Origin: an uncultured Clostridia bacterium
Lineage (GTDB): Bacteria > Bacillota > Clostridia > RUG12999
DNA: 64,000 nt
NCBI GenBank assembly: GCA_934792465.1
Contig: CAKVOK010000001.1
Location: 37,144 to 101,143 of the forward strand
Direction of reading: 5' to 3'
Both the position numbers and the translations under genes were made by a program. Numbering within the stretch: the stretch's first letter is position 1; every line of letters starts with the position of its first letter. The notes beneath the pieces were generated by a model. That model did no database searches. It was not told the origin of the DNA and saw only the letters and a program-made list of their open reading frames with translations. Below are positions 2,547 through 55,840 of the stretch, piece by piece.

Positions 2547-2978
2547 TTAAAGTGAGGATGCTTTCTTACCAAGCTCGCGGCATTCGTCGAGTCCTGCATC
2601 GTCGGGAGCGTCGTTTAATGTCAGTCCGGCATCTCCTACGAGATTTGCGCCTGCGTCTTTCACACGCTGTTCCCAGTTGCGCATCCATTCGCCGTCGCCC
2701 CAGCCGTATGAACCGAATAAAGCTACGTTTTTGCCGGAAATCTTCGATTCAAGCCCGCTGAAAAACGGCTCAAACTCTTCTTCTTCCAATACCTCCGCTC
2801 CCATAGCCGGGCAGCCGAGAATAAGTGTGTCGTATTCTGCGGCGCTTTCCGGAGAAATCTCCGAAACCGTAAAATATGCCGTGTCGGGGTTTGCGGTTTT
2901 CGCACCTTCGAGTATTGCGTCTGCCATAGCGGCTGTATTTCCCGTGCCGCTCCAATAAATAATTGCTGTTTTGCTCAT
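2547..2978 (-). CDS. Flavodoxin (short-chain)
   Basis: MSKTAIIYWSGTGNT flavodoxin signature at the N-terminus, with GGAGGT RBS 10 nt upstream of the ATG at 2978. The longer track ORF (to 3017) has no RBS. Confidence 0.85.
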   Translation of the reverse strand: MSKTAIIYWSGTGNTAAMADAILEGAKTANPDTAYFTVSEISPESAAEYDTLILGCPAMGAEVLEEEEFEPFFSGLESKISGKNVALFGSYGWGDGEWMRNWEQRVKDAGANLVGDAGLTLNDAPDDAGLDECRELGKKASSL

Positions 2979-3600: not shown

Positions 3601-3767
3601 AAATATTACCGTCCTATACACAGTTAGCAAAAACTAACCCACAGCCAAAATAATAATGCAAGGTTAGTTTGCACTAACTATATAATAACATACTTTTCTC
3701 CGTTTGTCAATACCTTTTTGAAATAAATTTAATTGCAGTGCTCGGGAAGATATACAGACTGCGGAAT

Positions 3768-3774
3768 TTGTCGA
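3768..3774 (+). promoter_or_regulatory. Putative Spo0A box (TGTCGAA) about 70 nt upstream of the spoIIA operon.
   Basis: Exact match to the 0A-box core TGNCGAA in the spoIIAA leader. In Bacillus, spoIIA is a Spo0A/sigma-H dependent operon. Confidence 0.3.
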
Positions 3775-3840
3775 ACGAAAAATAAAGGGTTTTTACTTAT
3801 TTTTACAGAAATTAATTAATATAGGAAAAATGAGAGGAGC

Positions 3841-4161
3841 ATGAAAATGGAGTTCAGTATTTCACGAAGGAACAACAAATTGTATGTAAAGGTAAACGGG
3901 GAAATCGACCATCACAGCTGCGCTCCGCTGCGCGACTGTGTCGATCTTGAAATAAAAAGCGGCGGAGTGAGAGAGCTTATATTCGATTTTTCAAAGCTTA
4001 CGCTTATGGACAGTTCCGGGATAGGTATTTTAATGGGGAGATACAAGCTTATGAAGCTTTGCGGCGGCAGCGTTACCGTCGTCGGAGCGGAAAGCTGTAT
4101 CGAAAAAATAATGACACTTTCCGGAATAAGCGATATTATAAAGATTAAAAAAGCCGGATAA
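3841..4161 (+). CDS. spoIIAA: Anti-sigma F factor antagonist SpoIIAA (STAS domain)
   Basis: STAS-domain sequence (…DSSGIGILMGRYKLMK…) and position as first gene of a spoIIAA-spoIIAB-sigF operon. The alternative start ATG at 3847 has better RBS spacing. Confidence 0.9.
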   Translation: MKMEFSISRRNNKLYVKVNGEIDHHSCAPLRDCVDLEIKSGGVRELIFDFSKLTLMDSSGIGILMGRYKLMKLCGGSVTVVGAESCIEKIMTLSGISDIIKIKKAG

Positions 4162-4256
4162 AAACAAAAAACAGCCTTTCCCGTTAAGAAATTGCTCTGC
4201 GGACGGGAAAACGAAATAATATTATGCCGTGCAGGGCGGCGGATTGGAGATTAACA

Positions 4257-4700
4257 ATGAAAGATATTATGAAACTTGAATTTCCGGCACTGTCGGAATA
4301 CGAATCCTTTGCGAGGGTAGCGGTTGCGGCATTTATTGCAAGGCTTGACCCGACGATAGTTGAAATAAACGAAATAAAGACTGCAATATCGGAATGTGTG
4401 ACGAACAGCGTTATACACGGATATAAGGAAAAAGGCGGAACGGTGTACATAGAATGTGAAATAGACGATGCGAATATCAGACTTTCAGTAAGCGACAAGG
4501 GCTGCGGAATTGAAGATGTGAAAAAGGCGAGGACACCTATGTTTACAACGAATCCGGACGGCGAACGCAGCGGTATGGGATTTACCGTCATGGAAACATT
4601 TATGGACAAGGTAGACGTCATATCCGAGCCCGGCAAGGGTACTACGGTTATATTGTATAAAAACGTTGCGGCAGGCGAGGAGGGCGTAAGGTGTGGATAA
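4257..4700 (+). CDS. spoIIAB: Anti-sigma F factor SpoIIAB (serine-protein kinase, HATPase_c)
   Basis: MKDIMKLEFPALSEYESFARVAVAAFIARL… is typical of SpoIIAB, and the GHKL ATPase motifs are present. GGAG RBS 8 nt upstream of the ATG at 4257. Confidence 0.9.
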   Translation: MKDIMKLEFPALSEYESFARVAVAAFIARLDPTIVEINEIKTAISECVTNSVIHGYKEKGGTVYIECEIDDANIRLSVSDKGCGIEDVKKARTPMFTTNPDGERSGMGFTVMETFMDKVDVISEPGKGTTVILYKNVAAGEEGVRCG

Positions 4701-5400
4701 GGATTTAATCCGCCTTATCCTGAAAGCGCAGTCCGGCGATAAAAATGCAATGTCGGTTCTGACGGAAAGTAACGAGCGGCTTGTGTGGAGTATTGTAAAG
4801 CGGTTTTCGGGCAGGGGAGAGGAAACTGCCGATTTGTTTCAGACCGGCTGTATCGGACTTATTAAAGCGATTAAAAATTTCGATACATCAAAGGAAGTAT
4901 GCTTTTCCACATATGCCGTACCTATGATAATGGGAGAAATCCGCCGGTATATACGCGACAACGGTGCGGTTAAGGTGAGCCGAAGCATAAAGGAGCTTGG
5001 CGTAAAGGTGCGCTATGCTTCGGACGCCGTTTCGAAGGAAACGGGAGAAACCGCAAGTATTTCGCAGGTTGCCGAAAGGCTCGGAATAAGCGTTGAAGAA
5101 GCGGCGAGCGCATATGCGGCGAGTGAGCCGCCGGTGTCGATATATCAGCAGATAGGCGAAAATATGAGTATAATGGATACGCTTTGCGATAAAGCGGATT
5201 TTGAAGAAAAGGTAGTTGACGGTATGTTTATAAAATCAGCTGCCGAAAAGCTTGACGAGCGGGAAAAAACAATAGTCATAATGAGATATTACCACAACAA
5301 AACACAGACACAGATTGCCGAGATGCTCGGAATATCTCAGGTTCAGGTTTCGAGAATAGAAAAGAAGGTTCTTGAAAAAATGCGCCGTGAAGCGGGATAA
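4693..5400 (+). CDS. sigF: RNA polymerase sporulation sigma factor SigF
   Basis: Sigma-70 regions 2 and 4 (…LVWSIVKRF…, C-terminal HTH …QIAEMLGISQVQVSRIEKK…). GTG start overlapping the spoIIAB stop, with AGGAGGG RBS. Confidence 0.9.
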   Translation: MDKDLIRLILKAQSGDKNAMSVLTESNERLVWSIVKRFSGRGEETADLFQTGCIGLIKAIKNFDTSKEVCFSTYAVPMIMGEIRRYIRDNGAVKVSRSIKELGVKVRYASDAVSKETGETASISQVAERLGISVEEAASAYAASEPPVSIYQQIGENMSIMDTLCDKADFEEKVVDGMFIKSAAEKLDEREKTIVIMRYYHNKTQTQIAEMLGISQVQVSRIEKKVLEKMRREAG

Positions 5401-10309: not shown

Positions 10310-11602
10310 TTATTTTACCGCTGCAAAAGCATCGTCGAGTGCTTCGATAAGGTCGTCGATATTTTCGATACCTATCGAAAGTCTTATCGTGTTCGGCTTA
10401 ATATCCTGTTCAAGCAGCTCTGCTTCCGTCAGCTGCGAATGAGTTGTCGAAGCCGGGTGTATTACGAGAGATTTTACGTCAGCAACATTTGCCAGCAGCG
10501 AGAAAATTCTCAGATTATCAATGAATTTCTGCGCTGTCTTGTCGTCACCCTTGATTTCAAACGTGAAAATCGAACCTCCGCCGTTCGGGAAATACTTCTT
10601 ATAGAGATTGTGACTCGGCTCGGTTTCGAGCGACGGGTGATGAACAGCTTCAACCTGCGGATGATTATTTAAATAATCAACGATTTTCAGTGCGTTTGAT
10701 ACGTGTCTTTCAACTCTTAAAGAGAGCGTTTCAAGACCCTGCAGGAACATAAAAGCATGGAACGGCGAAAGTGTCGAACCGGTATCTCTCAAGAGTATTG
10801 CTCTTATATATGTCGCAAATGCTGCCGGGCCTGCCGCATCGGCAAAGCTTATGCCGTGATATGACGGATTTGGTTCGGAAATCCAAGGATATTTTCCCGA
10901 AGCTTTCCAGTCGAATGTGCCTCCGTCTACTATAACACCGCCTATTGCCGCTCCGTGACCGCCTATGAATTTCGTTGCGCTGTGAACCACAATATCCGCA
11001 CCGTATTCAATAGGTCTTACGAGATACGGAGTTGCAAATGTAGAGTCAACAACAAGCGGTATGCCGTGTTTGTGAGCGATTTTCGCAAGTTCTTCAATGT
11101 CTATGATGTTTGAATTGGGGTTTCCGAGCGTTTCTATGTAAAGTGCTTTTGTTTCAGGTTTTATCGCTTTTTCGAATGCTCCCTCTTCTTCGGGGTCTAC
11201 AAATGTTGCCGTAACTCCCGATGTGAGCGGAAGTGTGTGCGCAAGCAGATTGTATGTGCCGCCGTATATGGTTTTTGAAGCTACGATATGCTCGCCGGAT
11301 TTTGCAAGTGCGCTTATAACATAGTTTATTGCCGCCGCACCCGATGAGGTTGCGAGTGCTGCCGCACCGCCTTCAAGTGCGTTGATTCTTTCTTCAAATA
11401 CACCCTGCGTAGGGTTCGTCAATCTGCCGTATATATTACCGGCGTCGCGAAGTCCGAAACGGTCGGCTGCATGCTGCGAGTTGTGGAACACAAAAGAGGT
11501 CGATGCATATATCGGAACTGCTCTTGCGTCTGTTGCCGGGTCGGGATTTTCCTGACCTGCCTGTACCTGTAAAGTTTCAAATCTGTATTTTTTGTCTGCC
11601 AT
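10310..11602 (-). CDS. metY: O-acetylhomoserine aminocarboxypropyltransferase / sulfhydrylase
   Basis: 430 aa with a Cys/Met-metabolism PLP enzyme N-terminus (…RFETLQVQAGQ…AVPIYASTSFVF…). Confidence 0.9.
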   Translation of the reverse strand: MADKKYRFETLQVQAGQENPDPATDARAVPIYASTSFVFHNSQHAADRFGLRDAGNIYGRLTNPTQGVFEERINALEGGAAALATSSGAAAINYVISALAKSGEHIVASKTIYGGTYNLLAHTLPLTSGVTATFVDPEEEGAFEKAIKPETKALYIETLGNPNSNIIDIEELAKIAHKHGIPLVVDSTFATPYLVRPIEYGADIVVHSATKFIGGHGAAIGGVIVDGGTFDWKASGKYPWISEPNPSYHGISFADAAGPAAFATYIRAILLRDTGSTLSPFHAFMFLQGLETLSLRVERHVSNALKIVDYLNNHPQVEAVHHPSLETEPSHNLYKKYFPNGGGSIFTFEIKGDDKTAQKFIDNLRIFSLLANVADVKSLVIHPASTTHSQLTEAELLEQDIKPNTIRLSIGIENIDDLIEALDDAFAAVK

Positions 11603-35254: not shown

Positions 35255-36001
35255 TTACATTTTAAAGAGAAAATCTAACATTTTCGGGATATATTTGTCC
35301 CAGAAATCCCATGTATGCGCACCGTGACTCTCTTCATATTTGTAGCAATCCCAAATCGGTTCGACCGAATTCTTGAAAGCGAGATTATTTTGGTATAAGA
35401 AATCTTCGCAGCCGACAACCTGATATATTGCCGGTTTGCTTTTCCCTGAAGCCGCAAGCTTCTTTGCAAGGTAAATTACATTTTCTTCGCTTTCCGACAA
35501 ATCCTTTACATTACCCATTATAAGATAAAGTAAAGCCTTGTTCATAGGAGCGTCGGATTGCGCTATGCTTTCTATATCCAGGCAGCCCGAAAGCGAAGTT
35601 GCCGCACAGAATATATCGGGATTTTTCAATGCGATTTTAACGGCACCGTATCCGCCCATGGAAGCGCCGGCGATGAATGTATCGCTGCGATTCGTGCTGA
35701 GCGGAAATATTTTTCTTGTGTATTCAATGATTTCGTGAGATATATGTGTGTAATACCGTCCGCCGAATTTCATATCGGTATAAAAGCTGTTGTCTGCGCT
35801 CGGCATAACCACAGCAAGATTATAGTTTTTTACGTATTGCTCTATACAGGTGTTGCGAATCCATGCGCTGTAATCTCCGTACAATCCGTGCAGGAGATAA
35901 AGCGTTTTGAAAGGAGGTTCGCTGTTATCCGGCAGAATAACGTTTACATTAGTATTCTGCATTAAAACCTTTGACCTGAAATTAATCTGTATAAATGCCA
36001 T
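35255..36001 (-). CDS. Alpha/beta-hydrolase esterase (putative esterase family)
   Basis: GASMGGYGAVK nucleophile-elbow region, 248 aa. Confidence 0.7.
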   Translation of the reverse strand: MAFIQINFRSKVLMQNTNVNVILPDNSEPPFKTLYLLHGLYGDYSAWIRNTCIEQYVKNYNLAVVMPSADNSFYTDMKFGGRYYTHISHEIIEYTRKIFPLSTNRSDTFIAGASMGGYGAVKIALKNPDIFCAATSLSGCLDIESIAQSDAPMNKALLYLIMGNVKDLSESEENVIYLAKKLAASGKSKPAIYQVVGCEDFLYQNNLAFKNSVEPIWDCYKYEESHGAHTWDFWDKYIPKMLDFLFKM

Positions 36002-36033
36002 ATGCCATGTCCTTTCCTGTTATTTTACGTAAA

Positions 36034-37173
36034 TTATTTTTCGGTTGTCTTGTCGTAATGCTTGTTAAAAAATGCTTTGAGTATCGCAAATATCAGAGCA
36101 AATGCGGGAACCCCCACAATCATACCCGCAACGCCGAACAGACCGCCGCCGAGTACAATTGAGAAGATAACCCAGAATGCGGATATTCCCGTGGAGTTGC
36201 TTAATATTTTCGGGTTGATGAAGTTTCCGTCAATCTGCTGCAGCACAATCGCCAGTATCAAAAACCAAAGCGATGTAATCGGGGCGGCAATGAAAATAAA
36301 TACGGTGCCTATCACAGAACCCAGGATTGCGCCGAAATACGGTATAATGTTCGTAACACCGAAAACGAAGCTTACAAGTGCTACATAAGGCATTTTGAAT
36401 ATCTTCATGCATATCGCACACAAGATACCCATTATGAGGGAATCAAGCAGTTTACCCATGAAAAAGCCCTTAAAAATACCGTTCGCAACAGTGAAAGTAT
36501 TTATTATTTTGGTTGCTGTTTTGCGTTTAAAGCATACATAAAGAAGTTTTTTTATCTGCCGCAGAAAAACTTCTTTGTCGCCGAGCATATATATTGATAT
36601 TATAAACCCGAACAAGATGTTGTACAAAAACATGGTAACGTTTTTGACACCGCCCCATATCCCGACTATAGAATCCTTGGAATATGACAAAATCTTGTTG
36701 CCCATGTTGGCGGCAAAATTCTCAAATTTCATGAACCATTCGTCGGATATGGAAATATTTTTAGCATACTCTTCGAGTTTGGACAGTGCCGCAGGCGTCC
36801 AGACGGTCAGTTTATATGCTATTGAAATAATACTGTCTTTTATCTGCGGAGAAATTACCCATATAAACAGCGCAAGAAATGCAAATGTCATCAGATATGT
36901 AACCGTAAGTGCCGTTACTCGCCGTATGTGCAGATTTGTTCGCTTTTTAAACAGTTTATCATAAAGCTTTTCACAAAGATTGAGCAGAGGGTTAAGTATA
37001 TAGGCAATGCAAAAGGCATATACAAACGGCATAAGAAGCCCGAAAATCTTGCCGACCCAACCCAATATCGATGAAAAGTTTTCTGTAATAAAATAGAACA
37101 GTATACCGGCGGCAACCACAAGAAATGCGTATACCGCTTTGGTAGTATCGTCCTTATTAAAATTGAGTTTCAA
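36034..37173 (-). CDS. AI-2E family transporter (PerM-like permease)
   Basis: 379 aa, 8 TM, AI-2E family pattern. Confidence 0.75.
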   Translation of the reverse strand: MKLNFNKDDTTKAVYAFLVVAAGILFYFITENFSSILGWVGKIFGLLMPFVYAFCIAYILNPLLNLCEKLYDKLFKKRTNLHIRRVTALTVTYLMTFAFLALFIWVISPQIKDSIISIAYKLTVWTPAALSKLEEYAKNISISDEWFMKFENFAANMGNKILSYSKDSIVGIWGGVKNVTMFLYNILFGFIISIYMLGDKEVFLRQIKKLLYVCFKRKTATKIINTFTVANGIFKGFFMGKLLDSLIMGILCAICMKIFKMPYVALVSFVFGVTNIIPYFGAILGSVIGTVFIFIAAPITSLWFLILAIVLQQIDGNFINPKILSNSTGISAFWVIFSIVLGGGLFGVAGMIVGVPAFALIFAILKAFFNKHYDKTTEK

Positions 37174-37194
37174 TATTCGTCACTCCTTGTCATA

Positions 37195-37803
37195 TCAGCA
37201 GCACGGAATCAAATCTCCGCCCATGCATTCGCAGCAGCAATCCGCACAAATAAGCGAATTGCAGCAGTTGCAGCATTGCGCCGCATCTGCCGAAGGGTTT
37301 CCTGCACCTCGGTATCCGGAAGCTTGCTGCTGCATACGCATATATGCAGCTTTGTATTCTTCGTTTGTCGGTTCTTTGTTTACGGCTGTTTTGAAGCTGT
37401 AAAAAGCTTCGTTGTACATTCCTTTTCGAAGCGAAACCAGACCGTTCAGATAAAACCATTCGGAGTCTTTCGTCTTATATGACTGCAAACGCTGAGCTGC
37501 GGAATTTATATCTCCGTTGTTTATCAATTCTCTTATTTCTCTGTATTCCGGATTTGTATTTACATATGAATATGTTCCTGCCGAACCCGTATTTGCCTGA
37601 GAATTGTTTTTTGCCGCCGCACGGCTTTTTATAATCTCGTCATAAGCGTTTTCGATTTCTTTTCTCTTTTTTGCGGCAAGTTCGCTCAAGGGGCCGTCGG
37701 CATATTTATCCTCGCTGTATTTTTCGGCAAGTGCTTTAAATGCGGCATTTATTTCCTCCATTGATGCGTCATGCTTAACTCCTAAAATATTATATGCGTC
37801 CAT
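37195..37803 (-). CDS. J-domain-like protein lacking the HPD motif, with a TPR-like middle region and an extremely Cys-rich C-terminal tail
   Basis: MDAYNILGVKHDASMEEINAAFKALAEKYSEDKY (SED where HPD would be). C-terminus CCNCCNSLICADCCCECMGGDLIPCC. GGAGA RBS before the ATG at 37803. Confidence 0.5.
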   Translation of the reverse strand: MDAYNILGVKHDASMEEINAAFKALAEKYSEDKYADGPLSELAAKKRKEIENAYDEIIKSRAAAKNNSQANTGSAGTYSYVNTNPEYREIRELINNGDINSAAQRLQSYKTKDSEWFYLNGLVSLRKGMYNEAFYSFKTAVNKEPTNEEYKAAYMRMQQQASGYRGAGNPSADAAQCCNCCNSLICADCCCECMGGDLIPCC

Positions 37804-37844
37804 AGCAAAAATCTCCATTCCGTCTGCCCGTAAAGGCAAGACTT

Positions 37845-38660
37845 TTATTTTTCTTCGTATTTATTCAATATTCGTTCTGTTGTTGCGTTCAAATTTAAAT
37901 ATACGACATTGTCGAGCAAATCCTTGTTTCGTGCAAGGTTCAAAAGCTCGTATGCCTTTGCCGCTTCCGAAAGATTGTACCATACCGCCGGTGCGGCAGC
38001 CGCAATATCCTGTTTGGACGCAAAAGGATTAAATGCTCCTCTTTTTATGTCATCGTCGAAATCGTCGATTGCGTCTACGGTGTACAGCCATTTGCCTATA
38101 TTATACCCGAAAATTCTTAACACCTCGGAATTTTCTTTGTTAAAATCGAAAATTTCCTCCATGATTTTTCCGAAAGTATCGGAGGTAAGGTCGAAATTTT
38201 GTACATTGGCTTTTTCGTATTCCGAGAGTCTGTCAAGATTATCTTTTATGACTTTCATCTTGTCGCCGTATTTTTCGGTTATCCTTTTCATGTGAGGTGC
38301 AAATAAGGGATATGCGGCGATCTTTTTTGAAAATGTTCGGTCGTTAATGTCGTCTTTTATTTTATAATATGATAAAGCCATGCTCATATAGCTGCAATAC
38401 TCCAAATCTTTCTGGCGCTTTGCAAAGCTTCTTTTGTGAAGCGGGTGCAGCATACATTTTCCTGTGAAATACTCGCAGCTTTCGCCATTTAGGGAAGAAA
38501 GGAGTATCGCAAGAAATGTAAAATCGTAGCTTAGCGATATTCGGGAAAGATTTCCGAATATTTCTCCCTGTGTTTTGCACAAACCGCAGTAGAATGCCCG
38601 AAATACATTGTAATCTTTAATTTTCAGCTCGTCTTTTAAGACATTAATATATCCGAACAT
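37845..38660 (-). CDS. DUF5685-family protein
   Basis: MFGYINVLKDELKIKDYNVFRAFYCGLCK N-terminus, as I recall for DUF5685. Immediately upstream of the J-like gene. Confidence 0.45.
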   Translation of the reverse strand: MFGYINVLKDELKIKDYNVFRAFYCGLCKTQGEIFGNLSRISLSYDFTFLAILLSSLNGESCEYFTGKCMLHPLHKRSFAKRQKDLEYCSYMSMALSYYKIKDDINDRTFSKKIAAYPLFAPHMKRITEKYGDKMKVIKDNLDRLSEYEKANVQNFDLTSDTFGKIMEEIFDFNKENSEVLRIFGYNIGKWLYTVDAIDDFDDDIKRGAFNPFASKQDIAAAAPAVWYNLSEAAKAYELLNLARNKDLLDNVVYLNLNATTERILNKYEEK

Positions 38661-38740
38661 TGTTATCTCCCAAATATCTGAAATCATGCACCGTATGTGT
38701 GTTTATTCTTGTTCCCGGAACCTTGGTGCTTCGCACAAAA

Positions 38741-38972
38741 ATAACCTTATAAGAAAGGCAAAGTCTTTCGTTATTTAATTGTACATTTTATTCTTTCAAG
38801 ACCGCAAGCGGTCGCAGAAAGCAATGAAAACAACCTATAAAGGAAAGCGTTAGCTTTCCGCTATTTATTTGTATGTTTTATTCTTTCAAGACCGCAAGCG
38901 GTCGCGGAAAGCAATAAAAATAACCTTATAAGAAAGGCAAAGCCTTTCGTTATTTAATTGTACATTTTTATT
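38741..38972. repeat. Intergenic tandem repeat with a period of about 89-90 bp and about 2.6 copies. Each unit carries two hairpins: GAAAGGC-AAA-G(C/T)CTTTC or GGAAAGC-GTTA-GCTTTCC, and GACCGCAAGCGGTC.
   Basis: Direct sequence comparison. Unit starts are at about 38743, 38832 and 38922. Confidence 0.7.
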
Positions 38973-39156
38973 ATACCATAAAGAGTTTTAAATTGCAAGA
39001 TATTTTTAAAAATACTACGATTATACTAAGTATTAAAAAGAATATTCAAACTCCTATCGGCAGATTAAACAAAAAAATCATCATGGTCATATTGCATAGT
39101 TTTTGATGCGATATTTTGTGAAATTTATAAATATATACAAAAATACAAAAAAAGCA

Positions 39157-39185
39157 TTGACTTTAGCACGATAAAGTGATAAACT
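39157..39185 (+). promoter_or_regulatory. Putative sigma-A promoter (TTGACT-17-TAAACT) for the ABC transporter operon.
   Basis: Hexamers read from the sequence about 35 nt upstream of the SBP gene. Confidence 0.4.
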
Positions 39186-39218
39186 GATAAAGTAATAAAC
39201 AACAAAGGGGTTTTAAAA

Positions 39219-40049
39219 ATGAAAAAAATCATAGCACTTATTCTTGCTCTCAGCACAATGGCATTTGCGGGCTGCGGCAGCAAAACAAATGGAAATGCAA
39301 ATTCGGAAGCTACTCCGAAAACAAAAACGGAATCGGATTATGACTACATAAAAAGCAAAGGTACCATGAAAATCGGTATGACGCTTTTCAGTCCGATGGA
39401 TTATTACGATGATAACAATGAACTTACGGGTTTTGAAGTCGATTTCGGTAAAGCAGTATGCGAAAAACTCGGTGTTAAACCGGAATTTGTTGAAATCAAA
39501 TGGGATTCAAAGGAAATGGAGCTTGGATCAAAATCGGTTGACTGCCTCTGGAACGGTCTTACAATCACAGACGACAGAAAAGCCAATATGTCAATTTCAA
39601 ATCCTTACATGAAAAATGAACAGGTACTTATAGTTAAAAAGGATAATGCGGATAAGTTCAAAGAATCCATTAAAGACGCAAAGGTTGTTGCGGAACAGGG
39701 TTCGGCAGGCGAAGAGCTTGCAACAGGTGAGGAAGAATTTTTCGCAGGAGTAAACTTCACACCGGTTGATTCTCAGGCAAAAGCTTTGATGGAAGTAGAA
39801 TCGGGCATATCGGACGTTGCCGTTGTTGACTATGTAATGTCAATCGGTTCGATAGGCGAGGGTACGGATTTCAGCGACCTCGTTGTTGTGGACGGTAAGC
39901 AGTTCTCGCCTGAGGAATACGGAATTGCATTCAGAAAAGGCAGCGACGTTACGGCGAAAGTAAACGATGTGATAAAAGAACTTGCGGCAGACGGTACGCT
40001 TGATGAAATAGCTGCGAAATATAAGCTTGAAGAATCGCTTATAAAATAA
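39219..40049 (+). CDS. Amino acid ABC transporter substrate-binding lipoprotein (family 3 SBP)
   Basis: Lipobox MKKIIALILALSTMAFAGCGS. SBP_bac_3 pattern. Confidence 0.85.
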   Translation: MKKIIALILALSTMAFAGCGSKTNGNANSEATPKTKTESDYDYIKSKGTMKIGMTLFSPMDYYDDNNELTGFEVDFGKAVCEKLGVKPEFVEIKWDSKEMELGSKSVDCLWNGLTITDDRKANMSISNPYMKNEQVLIVKKDNADKFKESIKDAKVVAEQGSAGEELATGEEEFFAGVNFTPVDSQAKALMEVESGISDVAVVDYVMSIGSIGEGTDFSDLVVVDGKQFSPEEYGIAFRKGSDVTAKVNDVIKELAADGTLDEIAAKYKLEESLIK

Positions 40050-41584: not shown

Positions 41585-41851
41585 ATGCCGAATACAGCAG
41601 AAAGAAATGATTTTTACAAAACGGTTCTCTCGCTTGAGAGCTTTGATGAATGCAGAGATTTTTTTGAGGATATATGCACAATAAAGGAGCTGGACGCAAT
41701 ATCGCAGCGCCTTATGGTGGCAAAGCTTCTGAAAGAGGGAAAAACTTTTAATGAAATTGCGGAAATTTCGGGAGCTTCCTCCGCAACAATATCAAGGGTA
41801 AACAAATGCCTTATGTACGGCAAGGGATATAAAAGCGTTTTAAAGGACTGA
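41585..41851 (+). CDS. YerC/YecD-family TrpR-like protein
   Basis: 88 aa with a Trp-repressor-like HTH (…TFNEIAEISGASSATISRVNKCL…). Confidence 0.65.
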   Translation: MPNTAERNDFYKTVLSLESFDECRDFFEDICTIKELDAISQRLMVAKLLKEGKTFNEIAEISGASSATISRVNKCLMYGKGYKSVLKD

Positions 41852-55574: not shown

Positions 55575-55719
55575 GATTTGTGATTGTGGCATTTGCACTC
55601 TTTTTTGATATATGACAACAGCTTATTTGTGAAAATATCTGATTGACAAATAAAATTTAATATGATACAATATACAGTGTAAGAAATACCGCAGAAAATT
55701 GCGGTAAAAACAGAAAAAA

Positions 55720-55840
55720 CATTTTTGTGACTGACGGATAAGCGGAGTACCGCAGAGGAGCAAAAATGAATATTTTAAATGTCGACCGTCTGGGCAGTTC
55801 TGCTTTTTATGAGGGCAGGGCTGCCCTTATATTTTGCAGT
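55720..55840 (+). ncRNA. Candidate ZTP (pfl-motif) riboswitch with a terminator-like expression platform, leading the pur operon.
   Basis: 5' sub-domain …UGACUGACGG-AUAA-GCGGAGUACCGC-AGAGGAGC… and 3' sub-domain …CGACCGUCUGGGCA… match the pfl consensus I recall (…GACUGGCG…P2…GGGAGC… / …CCGCCUGGGCA…). The pseudoknot pair GGCG/CGCC is replaced by GACG/CGUC, a compensatory change. It is followed by a GAGGGCAG-gg-CTGCCCTT hairpin and then UAUAUUUU. Confidence 0.55.

Follow-up and report, generated by a model that had tools for sequence, protein, structure and literature searches.

A hairpin-forming tandem repeat in the predicted leader of a DUF5685 operon of an uncultured Clostridia bacterium: a candidate lineage-specific minisatellite

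What kind of element is a tandem array of hairpins placed between two divergent bacterial operons, and does its structure reflect selection? This question is raised by a 64,000-nt stretch of the genome of an uncultured Clostridia bacterium (assembly GCA_934792465.1, contig CAKVOK010000001.1, positions 37,144 to 101,143), which is called here the window and whose numbering is used throughout. The array occupies positions 38737–38968, between the DUF5685 gene on the minus strand and the operon of an SBP_bac_3 ATP-binding cassette (ABC) transporter on the plus strand, as was correctly recognised in a preliminary description of this DNA. We suggest, with moderate confidence, that it represents a lineage-specific hairpin-forming minisatellite in the 5' leader of the DUF5685 operon, and that its effect on this operon is at most modulatory. 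The array belongs to a known kind of element (intergenic hairpin-forming tandem repeats), and this instance is without sequence relatives.

Structure, location and alleles of the array

Tandem Repeats Finder reports a single array at this place (38737–38968; period 90, 2.6 copies, 77% matches, score 343), which outscores by far every other tandem repeat in the window. This agrees with the preliminary description, which had noted a repeat of approximately 90 bp in 2.6 copies and had placed all of its hairpins where we find them. The repeat search starts the copies at 38737, 38827 and 38916, and the period is 89–90 bp. The array is composed of alternating imperfect palindromes of about 45 bp each, the “A” and “B” modules, arranged in the order A1-B1-A2-B2-A3; neither the array nor its modules are assigned to a strand. 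The A1 module (38739–38776) has the core hairpin GAAAGGC-AAA-GTCTTTC at 38753–38769, including a G·T wobble between G38758 and T38764, and an outer stem AAATAAC/GTTATTT with a 7-nt bulge, as seen from the sequence and its fold; at position 38764, T was read in 14 contigs and C in other ones. A3 (38916–38968; core hairpin GAAAGGC-AAA-GCCTTTC at 38932–38948) coincides with A1, in direct orientation, at 52 of 53 bases, and the core hairpin of A2 (38827–38879) is GGAAAGC-GTTA-GCTTTCC at 38842–38859. The B1 module (38786–38829) carries the inner hairpin GACCG-CAAG-CGGTC (GACCGCAAGCGGTC) at 38800–38813, which is enclosed by an outer stem of CTTTC (38793–38797) and GAAAG (38817–38821) plus an A/U-rich extension. 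In B2 (38876–38919) the same inner palindrome, at 38890–38903, is nested in the outer CTTTC/GAAAG stem, and the two B modules differ at three positions.

In 100 shuffles, neither the B core (21 nt) nor the A core (47 nt) was matched. Folding of a 246-nt region comprising the array yields −77.6 kcal/mol for the plus strand (z = −9.3) and −77.0 kcal/mol for the minus strand (z = −7.6). At minimum energy, the entire array forms a single long hairpin centred on A2, which arises because each module is self-complementary and A1 is nearly equal to A3. Folded singly, the modules give −8 to −16 kcal/mol; for example, the values for the plus and the minus strand are −15.6 and −11.1 kcal/mol in B1, and −14.8 and −13.8 kcal/mol in A2.

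Directly to the right of A3 lies a promoter-like site, P1 (38970–38998, minus strand), composed of TTGCAA, a 17-nt spacer and the extended −10 element TGgTATAAT, with 10 of 12 matches plus the TG. Its counterpart in a relative with 75% protein identity (L025) has 11 of 12 matches plus the TG, and the extended −10 motif TGGTATAAT occurs also in a relative with 85% identity (L024). Transcription from P1 is predicted to start at about 38962, which would make the array the 5' leader of the DUF5685 operon, situated between P1 and the ribosome-binding site (RBS) of DUF5685. This gene is called at 37845–38687 on the minus strand (280 aa from the ATG at 38687; Pfam PF18937 at 2.8e-80), although its true start is probably the ATG at 38660, nine codons shorter than in the public gene calls, because a suitably spaced GGGAG RBS is located at 38671–38667, the Pfam match begins from residue 10 and close homologues have 267–272 aa. 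The start at 38660 also fits the MFGY N-terminus of the DUF5685 family. Between it and the array, the predicted leader continues as a non-repeated proximal part (38661–38736, minus strand), which includes a 26-nt segment S (GTTCCCGGAACCTTGGTGCTTCGCAC, 38711–38736).

The same locus was recovered through exact-protein look-ups from about 20 human-gut metagenome assemblies and from one NCBI metagenome-assembled genome (GCA_902478335.1). Among the strains, the array has one, two or three A modules and from zero to two B modules, and larger mosaics also occur. The allele of the window, S-A1-B-A2-B-A3, was found only in sample ERZ28614416, where it is identical to the window across the intergenic region, so that B2 and A3 are confined to the window's sample. 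The commonest allele, S-A1-B-A2, is present in about 15 samples and is exactly 89 bp shorter; one contig (L029) retains S-A2 only. A mosaic allele, S-A1-B-X-S-A2-B-A2 (L031, positions 1–406), has S duplicated and a third hairpin X (CGCAATC-AAA-GATTGCG) added, and in a sister lineage with 97% protein identity (L022/L023) a mosaic A module is followed by a B module with another loop (GACCG-TGAA-CGGTC) and then by X. A2 represents the older paralogue, and no contig extending as far as the promoter-proximal part of the array lacks it.

The deletions that distinguish these alleles comprise exactly one period (89 bp), and their junctions lie in the similar 3' flanks of the modules (TTGTATGTTTT / TTGTACATTTT) or in the 5' flanks. 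Many contigs terminate at or within the array, and these breaks are explained by the duplication of S and by mixed alleles within a sample. Several short-read contigs stop exactly 4 nt past S, which suggests that the complex S-duplicated alleles (of the L031 type; also in L021 and L022) are common yet poorly assembled. The locus thus has the properties by which minisatellites, or variable-number tandem repeats (VNTR), are recognised: a head-to-tail unit longer than 10 bp and a copy number that varies between strains between the same flanking genes. It shares with intergenic VNTR the single locus, the period of 89–90 bp, the strain-variable copy number and the change of whole units via homologous junctions, but differs in that each unit combines two different imperfect palindromes (a direct plus an inverted repeat) and in that the hairpin is kept across an old divergence of paralogues.

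The examined part of the genome amounts to about 73 kb (the 64-kb window and about 9 kb beyond it), and neither mismatch-tolerant patterns nor a full-sensitivity nhmmer profile revealed a second copy of the units there; pattern searches and nhmmer found none elsewhere in 130 fetched loci. The search for other copies proposed in the preliminary description therefore ended without a dispersed family in these 73 kb or in the relatives. Across 185,579 species genomes of GTDB, a collection in which the presence of this species is unconfirmed, the B-core 19-mer gave six unrelated matches, none of them flanked by CTTTC/GAAAG. A degenerate B pattern had no match in JGI metagenomes or IMG/VR, and BLAST of the array against phage and plasmid collections was empty.

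In relatives with 85% protein identity or less the repeat is absent. L024 keeps the −10 element of P1 and the flanking genes and has one unrelated hairpin between the −10 element and the RBS, and L025 keeps the promoter and the flanking genes and has other unrelated hairpins instead of the array. A perfect 17-bp inverted repeat (AATTGACACATAAAGAA ... TTCTTTATGTGTCAATT) is located in L025 at about 2840–2900 (plus strand of that locus), where it overlaps both the predicted transcription start and the −10 element of the DUF5685 promoter. No homologue of the units and no comparable tandem repeat was found in 80 distant DUF5685 loci (33–51% identity); in the 69 analysable ones there is no consistent hairpin within 300 nt upstream, a terminator-like hairpin being sense-oriented in 10 and antisense in 13. 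The idea of a conserved leader motif of the DUF5685 family was rejected on the basis of these distant loci.

Retention of the hairpins and the question of the strand

Is the structure of the modules maintained by selection? The cores of A1/A3 and of A2 are distinguished by two pair swaps (A-T to G-C and G-C to A-T) together with a change in loop length, which is equivalent to moving the centre of the palindrome by half a base. The flanks of the A1-type and A2-type modules are about 78% identical, and their hairpin cores differ at 9 of 23 aligned positions, with a perfect 7-bp stem in both. In a simulation, approximately 0.4% of sequences retained a 7-bp stem after 9 differences in 23 bases (p about 0.004), and the retention of the A hairpin across the old A1/A2 divergence is non-random. 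The evidence for compensation comes from this one old divergence (two compensated pairs, with no homologues outside the species), because the other identities result from recent duplication. The 3A/2B allele was seen in one sample only, and therefore the same B palindromes and the near-equal A1 and A3 are a recent private duplication with no sign of constraint. The preliminary description had read the compensatory changes among the copies as selection on structure; of this, a non-random retention of the hairpin is upheld for A1 versus A2, although for a single divergence, and the reading does not extend to A1 versus A3. It had also named a recent duplication at a single locus as an outcome that would speak against selection, which is largely what we found: the locus is single as far as tested, its third copy is private and recent, and relatives lack it.

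The population data contain five stem substitutions, all of them single transitions. Four yield a G·U pair on the plus strand (two in A1, namely C to T at 38764 and, in L028, A to G; one in A2, A to G in L027; and one in B, C to T in L023), and one, in the outermost A pair of L022, yields it on the minus strand. A plus-strand wobble bias had seemed to be 4 of 4 until this counter-example from L022, and the 4:1 split is not significant; the density of polymorphisms is alike in stem and non-stem positions. The plus strand is G-rich here and appears to be the lagging-strand template, in which case a bias of C-to-T and A-to-G deamination on the G-rich strand would predict the same direction of G·U pairs and could be the source of the pattern. 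The wobble in A1, which had earlier been taken as an indication of a plus-strand RNA, does not carry this conclusion.

A different process is hinted at by the B module of L022, where the centre changes symmetrically from GACCGC-AA-GCGGTC to GACCGT-GA-ACGGTC, retaining a pair that is superfluous for an RNA tetraloop. Such a change may point to palindromes being preserved at the level of DNA, for instance by template switching, rather than to RNA selection.

We propose that the units are gained and lost via unequal recombination or replication slippage between the repeated flanks of the modules, since the breakpoints sit in these homologous flanks, and hairpins formed on single-stranded DNA would probably aid this process. 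The perfect palindromes may be kept by weak selection for the stem-loops, by quasi-palindrome template switching, with one arm serving as the template for the other, or by both. Passive transcription from P1 would produce a leader of about 300 nt in the window, shrinking to about 210 nt with the common allele and to about 120 nt with the shortest one, and this RNA would fold into local stem-loops that may alter the length and stability of the leader and would not be needed for expression of the operon. We expect the array to have at most a modulatory effect, given that alleles carrying from one to three A modules coexist and that the relatives lack them.

Several points weigh against this interpretation. 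Transcription from P1, its start site and the effect of the array are predictions made from the DNA sequence. The perfect stems across an old divergence, together with the plus-strand direction of four of the five G·U polymorphisms, make it conceivable that a single-stranded function is under selection, possibly on the opposite strand to the leader. A T-rich tract directly follows the A stems on the plus strand only, which a passive leader does not predict. The single-locus status, finally, applies to about 73 kb of the genome.

Less probable explanations: functional RNA, operators or a dispersed family

A stronger role would be assigned to the array if it were a functional cis-element of the DUF5685 mRNA leader, in which the hairpin nearest to the promoter (A2 in the common allele, A3 here) stabilises or processes the 5' end and the number of modules tunes the operon. 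A GC-rich hairpin is indeed situated about 14–21 nt past the −10 element of P1 in the window, in the common allele and in L024, and the 17-bp inverted repeat of L025 overlaps the −10 element and the predicted start, so that the position of a hairpin is kept in four versions of the leader with unrelated sequences. The first bases of the predicted transcript can be paired within the extended hairpin of A2 (−13.8 kcal/mol on the minus strand), and the non-random retention of the hairpins would also be expected from such a function. However, the transcription start is itself a prediction, most of the 69 distant DUF5685 loci are without a hairpin in the 300 nt upstream, the commonest A1 allele places an A·C mismatch in the minus-strand hairpin (−4.5 versus −10.3 kcal/mol), and strains with one, two and three A modules coexist. 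We regard this role as possible, but unlikely.

The array could instead act on the plus strand, either as a small or cis-antisense RNA or as tandem terminators that stop antisense transcription coming from the DUF5685 side before it reaches the ABC promoter. A1, A2 and A3 pass a minimal terminator scan, on the plus strand only, with 7-bp stems and five T in the next eight bases, which is a match to the consensus only; most modules are more stable as plus-strand RNA, four of the five stem polymorphisms give G·U on this strand, and L024 has at this place an unrelated plus-strand terminator, TGCGTC-CGCA-GACGCA followed by TTTTTTATTT. Yet no promoter-like site for the plus strand was found in the intergenic region ahead of the array. 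The nearest candidate is as far away as the DUF5685 gene, within which it occupies 38117–38146, and no counterpart of it was found at the equivalent position of L025. The four genes immediately to the left (35255–38687) are all on the minus strand, leaving nothing known to terminate; accordingly, the GC-containing stem and the U tract of an intrinsic (Rho-independent) terminator are present as a consensus match, while placement at the 3' end of a transcription unit of the same strand is lacking. Compared with intrinsic terminators, including tandem and bidirectional ones, the A modules share the GC-containing stem followed by a T-rich tract, but they have weak stems of just 7 bp (−8 to −15 kcal/mol) and an interrupted T tract, and they are positioned between divergent genes. 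The polymorphism split, as discussed above, is not significant and is predicted by a deamination bias that we infer. The idea of a positionally conserved plus-strand terminator was dropped, as L024 fits it and L025, with a terminator-like hairpin in the opposite (sense) orientation, does not.

The comparison with Rfam bears on the same explanation. No match at the gathering score was obtained with Rfam 15 in the region 38000–39800. The best match of the array, RF03533 (SQ1002), attains 29.4 bits where the gathering score is 128 (E = 5.9e-4 when 1.8 kb are searched), and it goes unreported when the whole window is searched at gathering thresholds. In Clostridioides difficile, SQ1002 is a small RNA about 200 nt long that is located beside feoA2 (PMC3649979). 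Its model aligns full-length to 38742–38964 of the plus strand (cmscan), and the two have in common an AU-rich intergenic location, several short hairpins and a terminal hairpin with a U tract; nevertheless, sequence identity is low, the neighbouring genes are not the same, and the array has no promoter ahead of it. With 29.4 bits and no link in PMC3649979, we recognise no true relationship. The preliminary proposal of a structured plus-strand small RNA is therefore not sustained: the intergenic region offers no plus-strand promoter, and the Rfam scan that had been recommended gave this sub-threshold match only. Altogether, we consider activity on the plus strand to be quite improbable. Still less probable is its elaborated form, in which the modules would be an expandable plus-strand RNA, cis-antisense to the DUF5685 leader, and the number of units would switch or tune the operon of DUF5685, the DnaJ-domain protein and the AI-2E transporter, creating a population-level expression polymorphism.

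At the DNA level, the perfect palindromes in a divergent intergenic region beside a regulator gene, as well as the symmetric change of the B centre in L022, could be attributed to operators on double-stranded DNA (dsDNA), bound by a dimeric regulator such as the TrpR-family protein at the end of the ABC operon and controlling the divergent promoters. This is the least probable of the explanations considered here. The spacing of the GAAAG/CTTTC half-sites is 7 nt in A1 as against 6 nt in A2 and L022, a shift that a hairpin tolerates and a dimeric dsDNA operator would not; the number of sites varies from one to five among strains; the sites come downstream of P1, and the ABC promoter is more than 190 bp further on; and they are absent from relatives that keep both promoters and the TrpR-like gene. 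The half-site spacing likewise makes the protein-binding hairpin array suggested by the preliminary description unlikely.

Palindromic modules in variable number are also characteristic of dispersed families. The BOX elements of Streptococcus pneumoniae (boxA-boxB(n)-boxC) and the repetitive extragenic palindromes (REP) and bacterial interspersed mosaic elements (BIME) of enterobacteria are scattered in tens to hundreds of copies per genome, have conserved family sequences, are often co-transcribed with neighbouring genes and form long stem-loops. Our array resembles them as a modular hairpin-forming intergenic element with a variable number of roughly 45-bp modules, and it might be one cluster of a REP/BIME-, BOX- or MITE-like (miniature inverted-repeat transposable element) family spread across the genome, for which the alternation of palindromes and the break of many assemblies at the array would speak. 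In contrast to these families, it is represented by one locus in about 73 kb, where nhmmer and patterns gave no other copy, and has no sequence similarity to anything searched; the B-core 19-mer has no related match in the 185,579 species genomes, and the contig breaks are accounted for by S duplication and mixed alleles. When short and long alleles are compared, the extra units possess neither the terminal inverted repeats nor the target-site duplications of a MITE, and their junctions are homologous. No REP-associated tyrosine transposase-like gene was seen among the 10 annotated neighbouring genes. A dispersed family is thus very unlikely.

Some other identities were rejected. Type III toxin–antitoxin arrays (ToxI, CptI) consist of short tandem repeats between a promoter and a downstream gene with which they are transcribed, and our half-unit of about 45 nt is in common with them; however, the downstream gene here, DUF5685, leads a conserved, housekeeping-like four-gene operon and is not a ToxN- or CptN-type endoribonuclease (nor a TenpN-type toxin), and it is kept in strains with less than one full repeat and in relatives with none, the repeats being absent from L024, L025 and the 80 further loci. 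The statement of the preliminary description that the array is not CRISPR-like (clustered regularly interspaced short palindromic repeats) is confirmed, as the B units are separated by the A modules, which are repeats in their own right; the 10 annotated neighbouring genes yielded no cas domain, and the CRISPR-DR54 match has 18.8 bits against a threshold of 39. An integron attC site was discarded as A2 does not conform to the R-box consensus, a small peptide as the open reading frames (ORFs) have just 3–9 codons and no RBS, and an invertible promoter as no inverted allele was seen.

Neighbouring genes and implications

DUF5685 is the first gene of the minus-strand operon to the left of the array, being followed by genes for a DnaJ-domain protein, an AI-2E transporter and an esterase. 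The plus-strand operon on the right encodes the SBP_bac_3 binding protein, a permease, an ATPase and the TrpR-family protein (41585–41851), and its promoter-like site (39157–39185, plus strand; TTGACT, 17 nt, TGaTAAACT), located downstream of the array on the plus strand, is kept in L025 (2664–2636 on the minus strand of that locus). An 8-bp unit (GATAAAGT/GATAAACT) is repeated 3.8 times at 39170–39200 (plus strand), over the −10 region of this site; it is partly conserved in L025 and may be a binding site of a regulator. A block at 38985–39013 (TTTTAAATTGCAAGATATTTTTAAAAATA), which contains the palindromic −35 hexamer TTGCAA, is near-identical in L025 amid unrelated intergenic sequence and probably represents a control region common to both divergent operons. 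In L025, about 130 nt of additional GC-rich leader precede the SBP gene.

Most long ORFs of the window are on the minus strand at 10310–38687 and on the plus strand at 39219–63692; a replication origin at this switch of gene orientation is ruled out, GC skew being positive on both sides. The sole gathering-level Rfam match of the window is a ZMP/ZTP riboswitch aptamer at 55717–55802 on the plus strand (RF01750; 62.4 bits against a gathering score of 39). On the same scaffold, a locus whose genes overlap the window at about 3700–5400 (L131, 6822–8375) has genes for a STAS anti-anti-sigma factor, a HATPase anti-sigma factor and a sigma-70 family factor, and this operon resembles spoIIAA-AB-sigF, which suggests a spore-forming organism. 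Together with the names given to distant homologues, this operon is also the ground on which the analysis placed the organism in the Clostridia.

As it stands, the array matters little, being one more species-specific hairpin minisatellite in a gut metagenome-assembled Clostridia-like genome. Its copy-number and mosaic alleles could nevertheless serve as strain markers, and they explain the assembly breaks at this locus. Clean natural cases of perfect palindromes that persist with changing sequence, which are relevant to template-switch mutagenesis, are provided by A1 and A2, whose palindrome centres are displaced relative to each other, and by the B module, whose centre has changed symmetrically in the sister lineage. 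Should the number of units prove to alter how the DUF5685 operon is expressed, its alleles could be used to approach a gene family of unknown function that is widespread in Clostridia.

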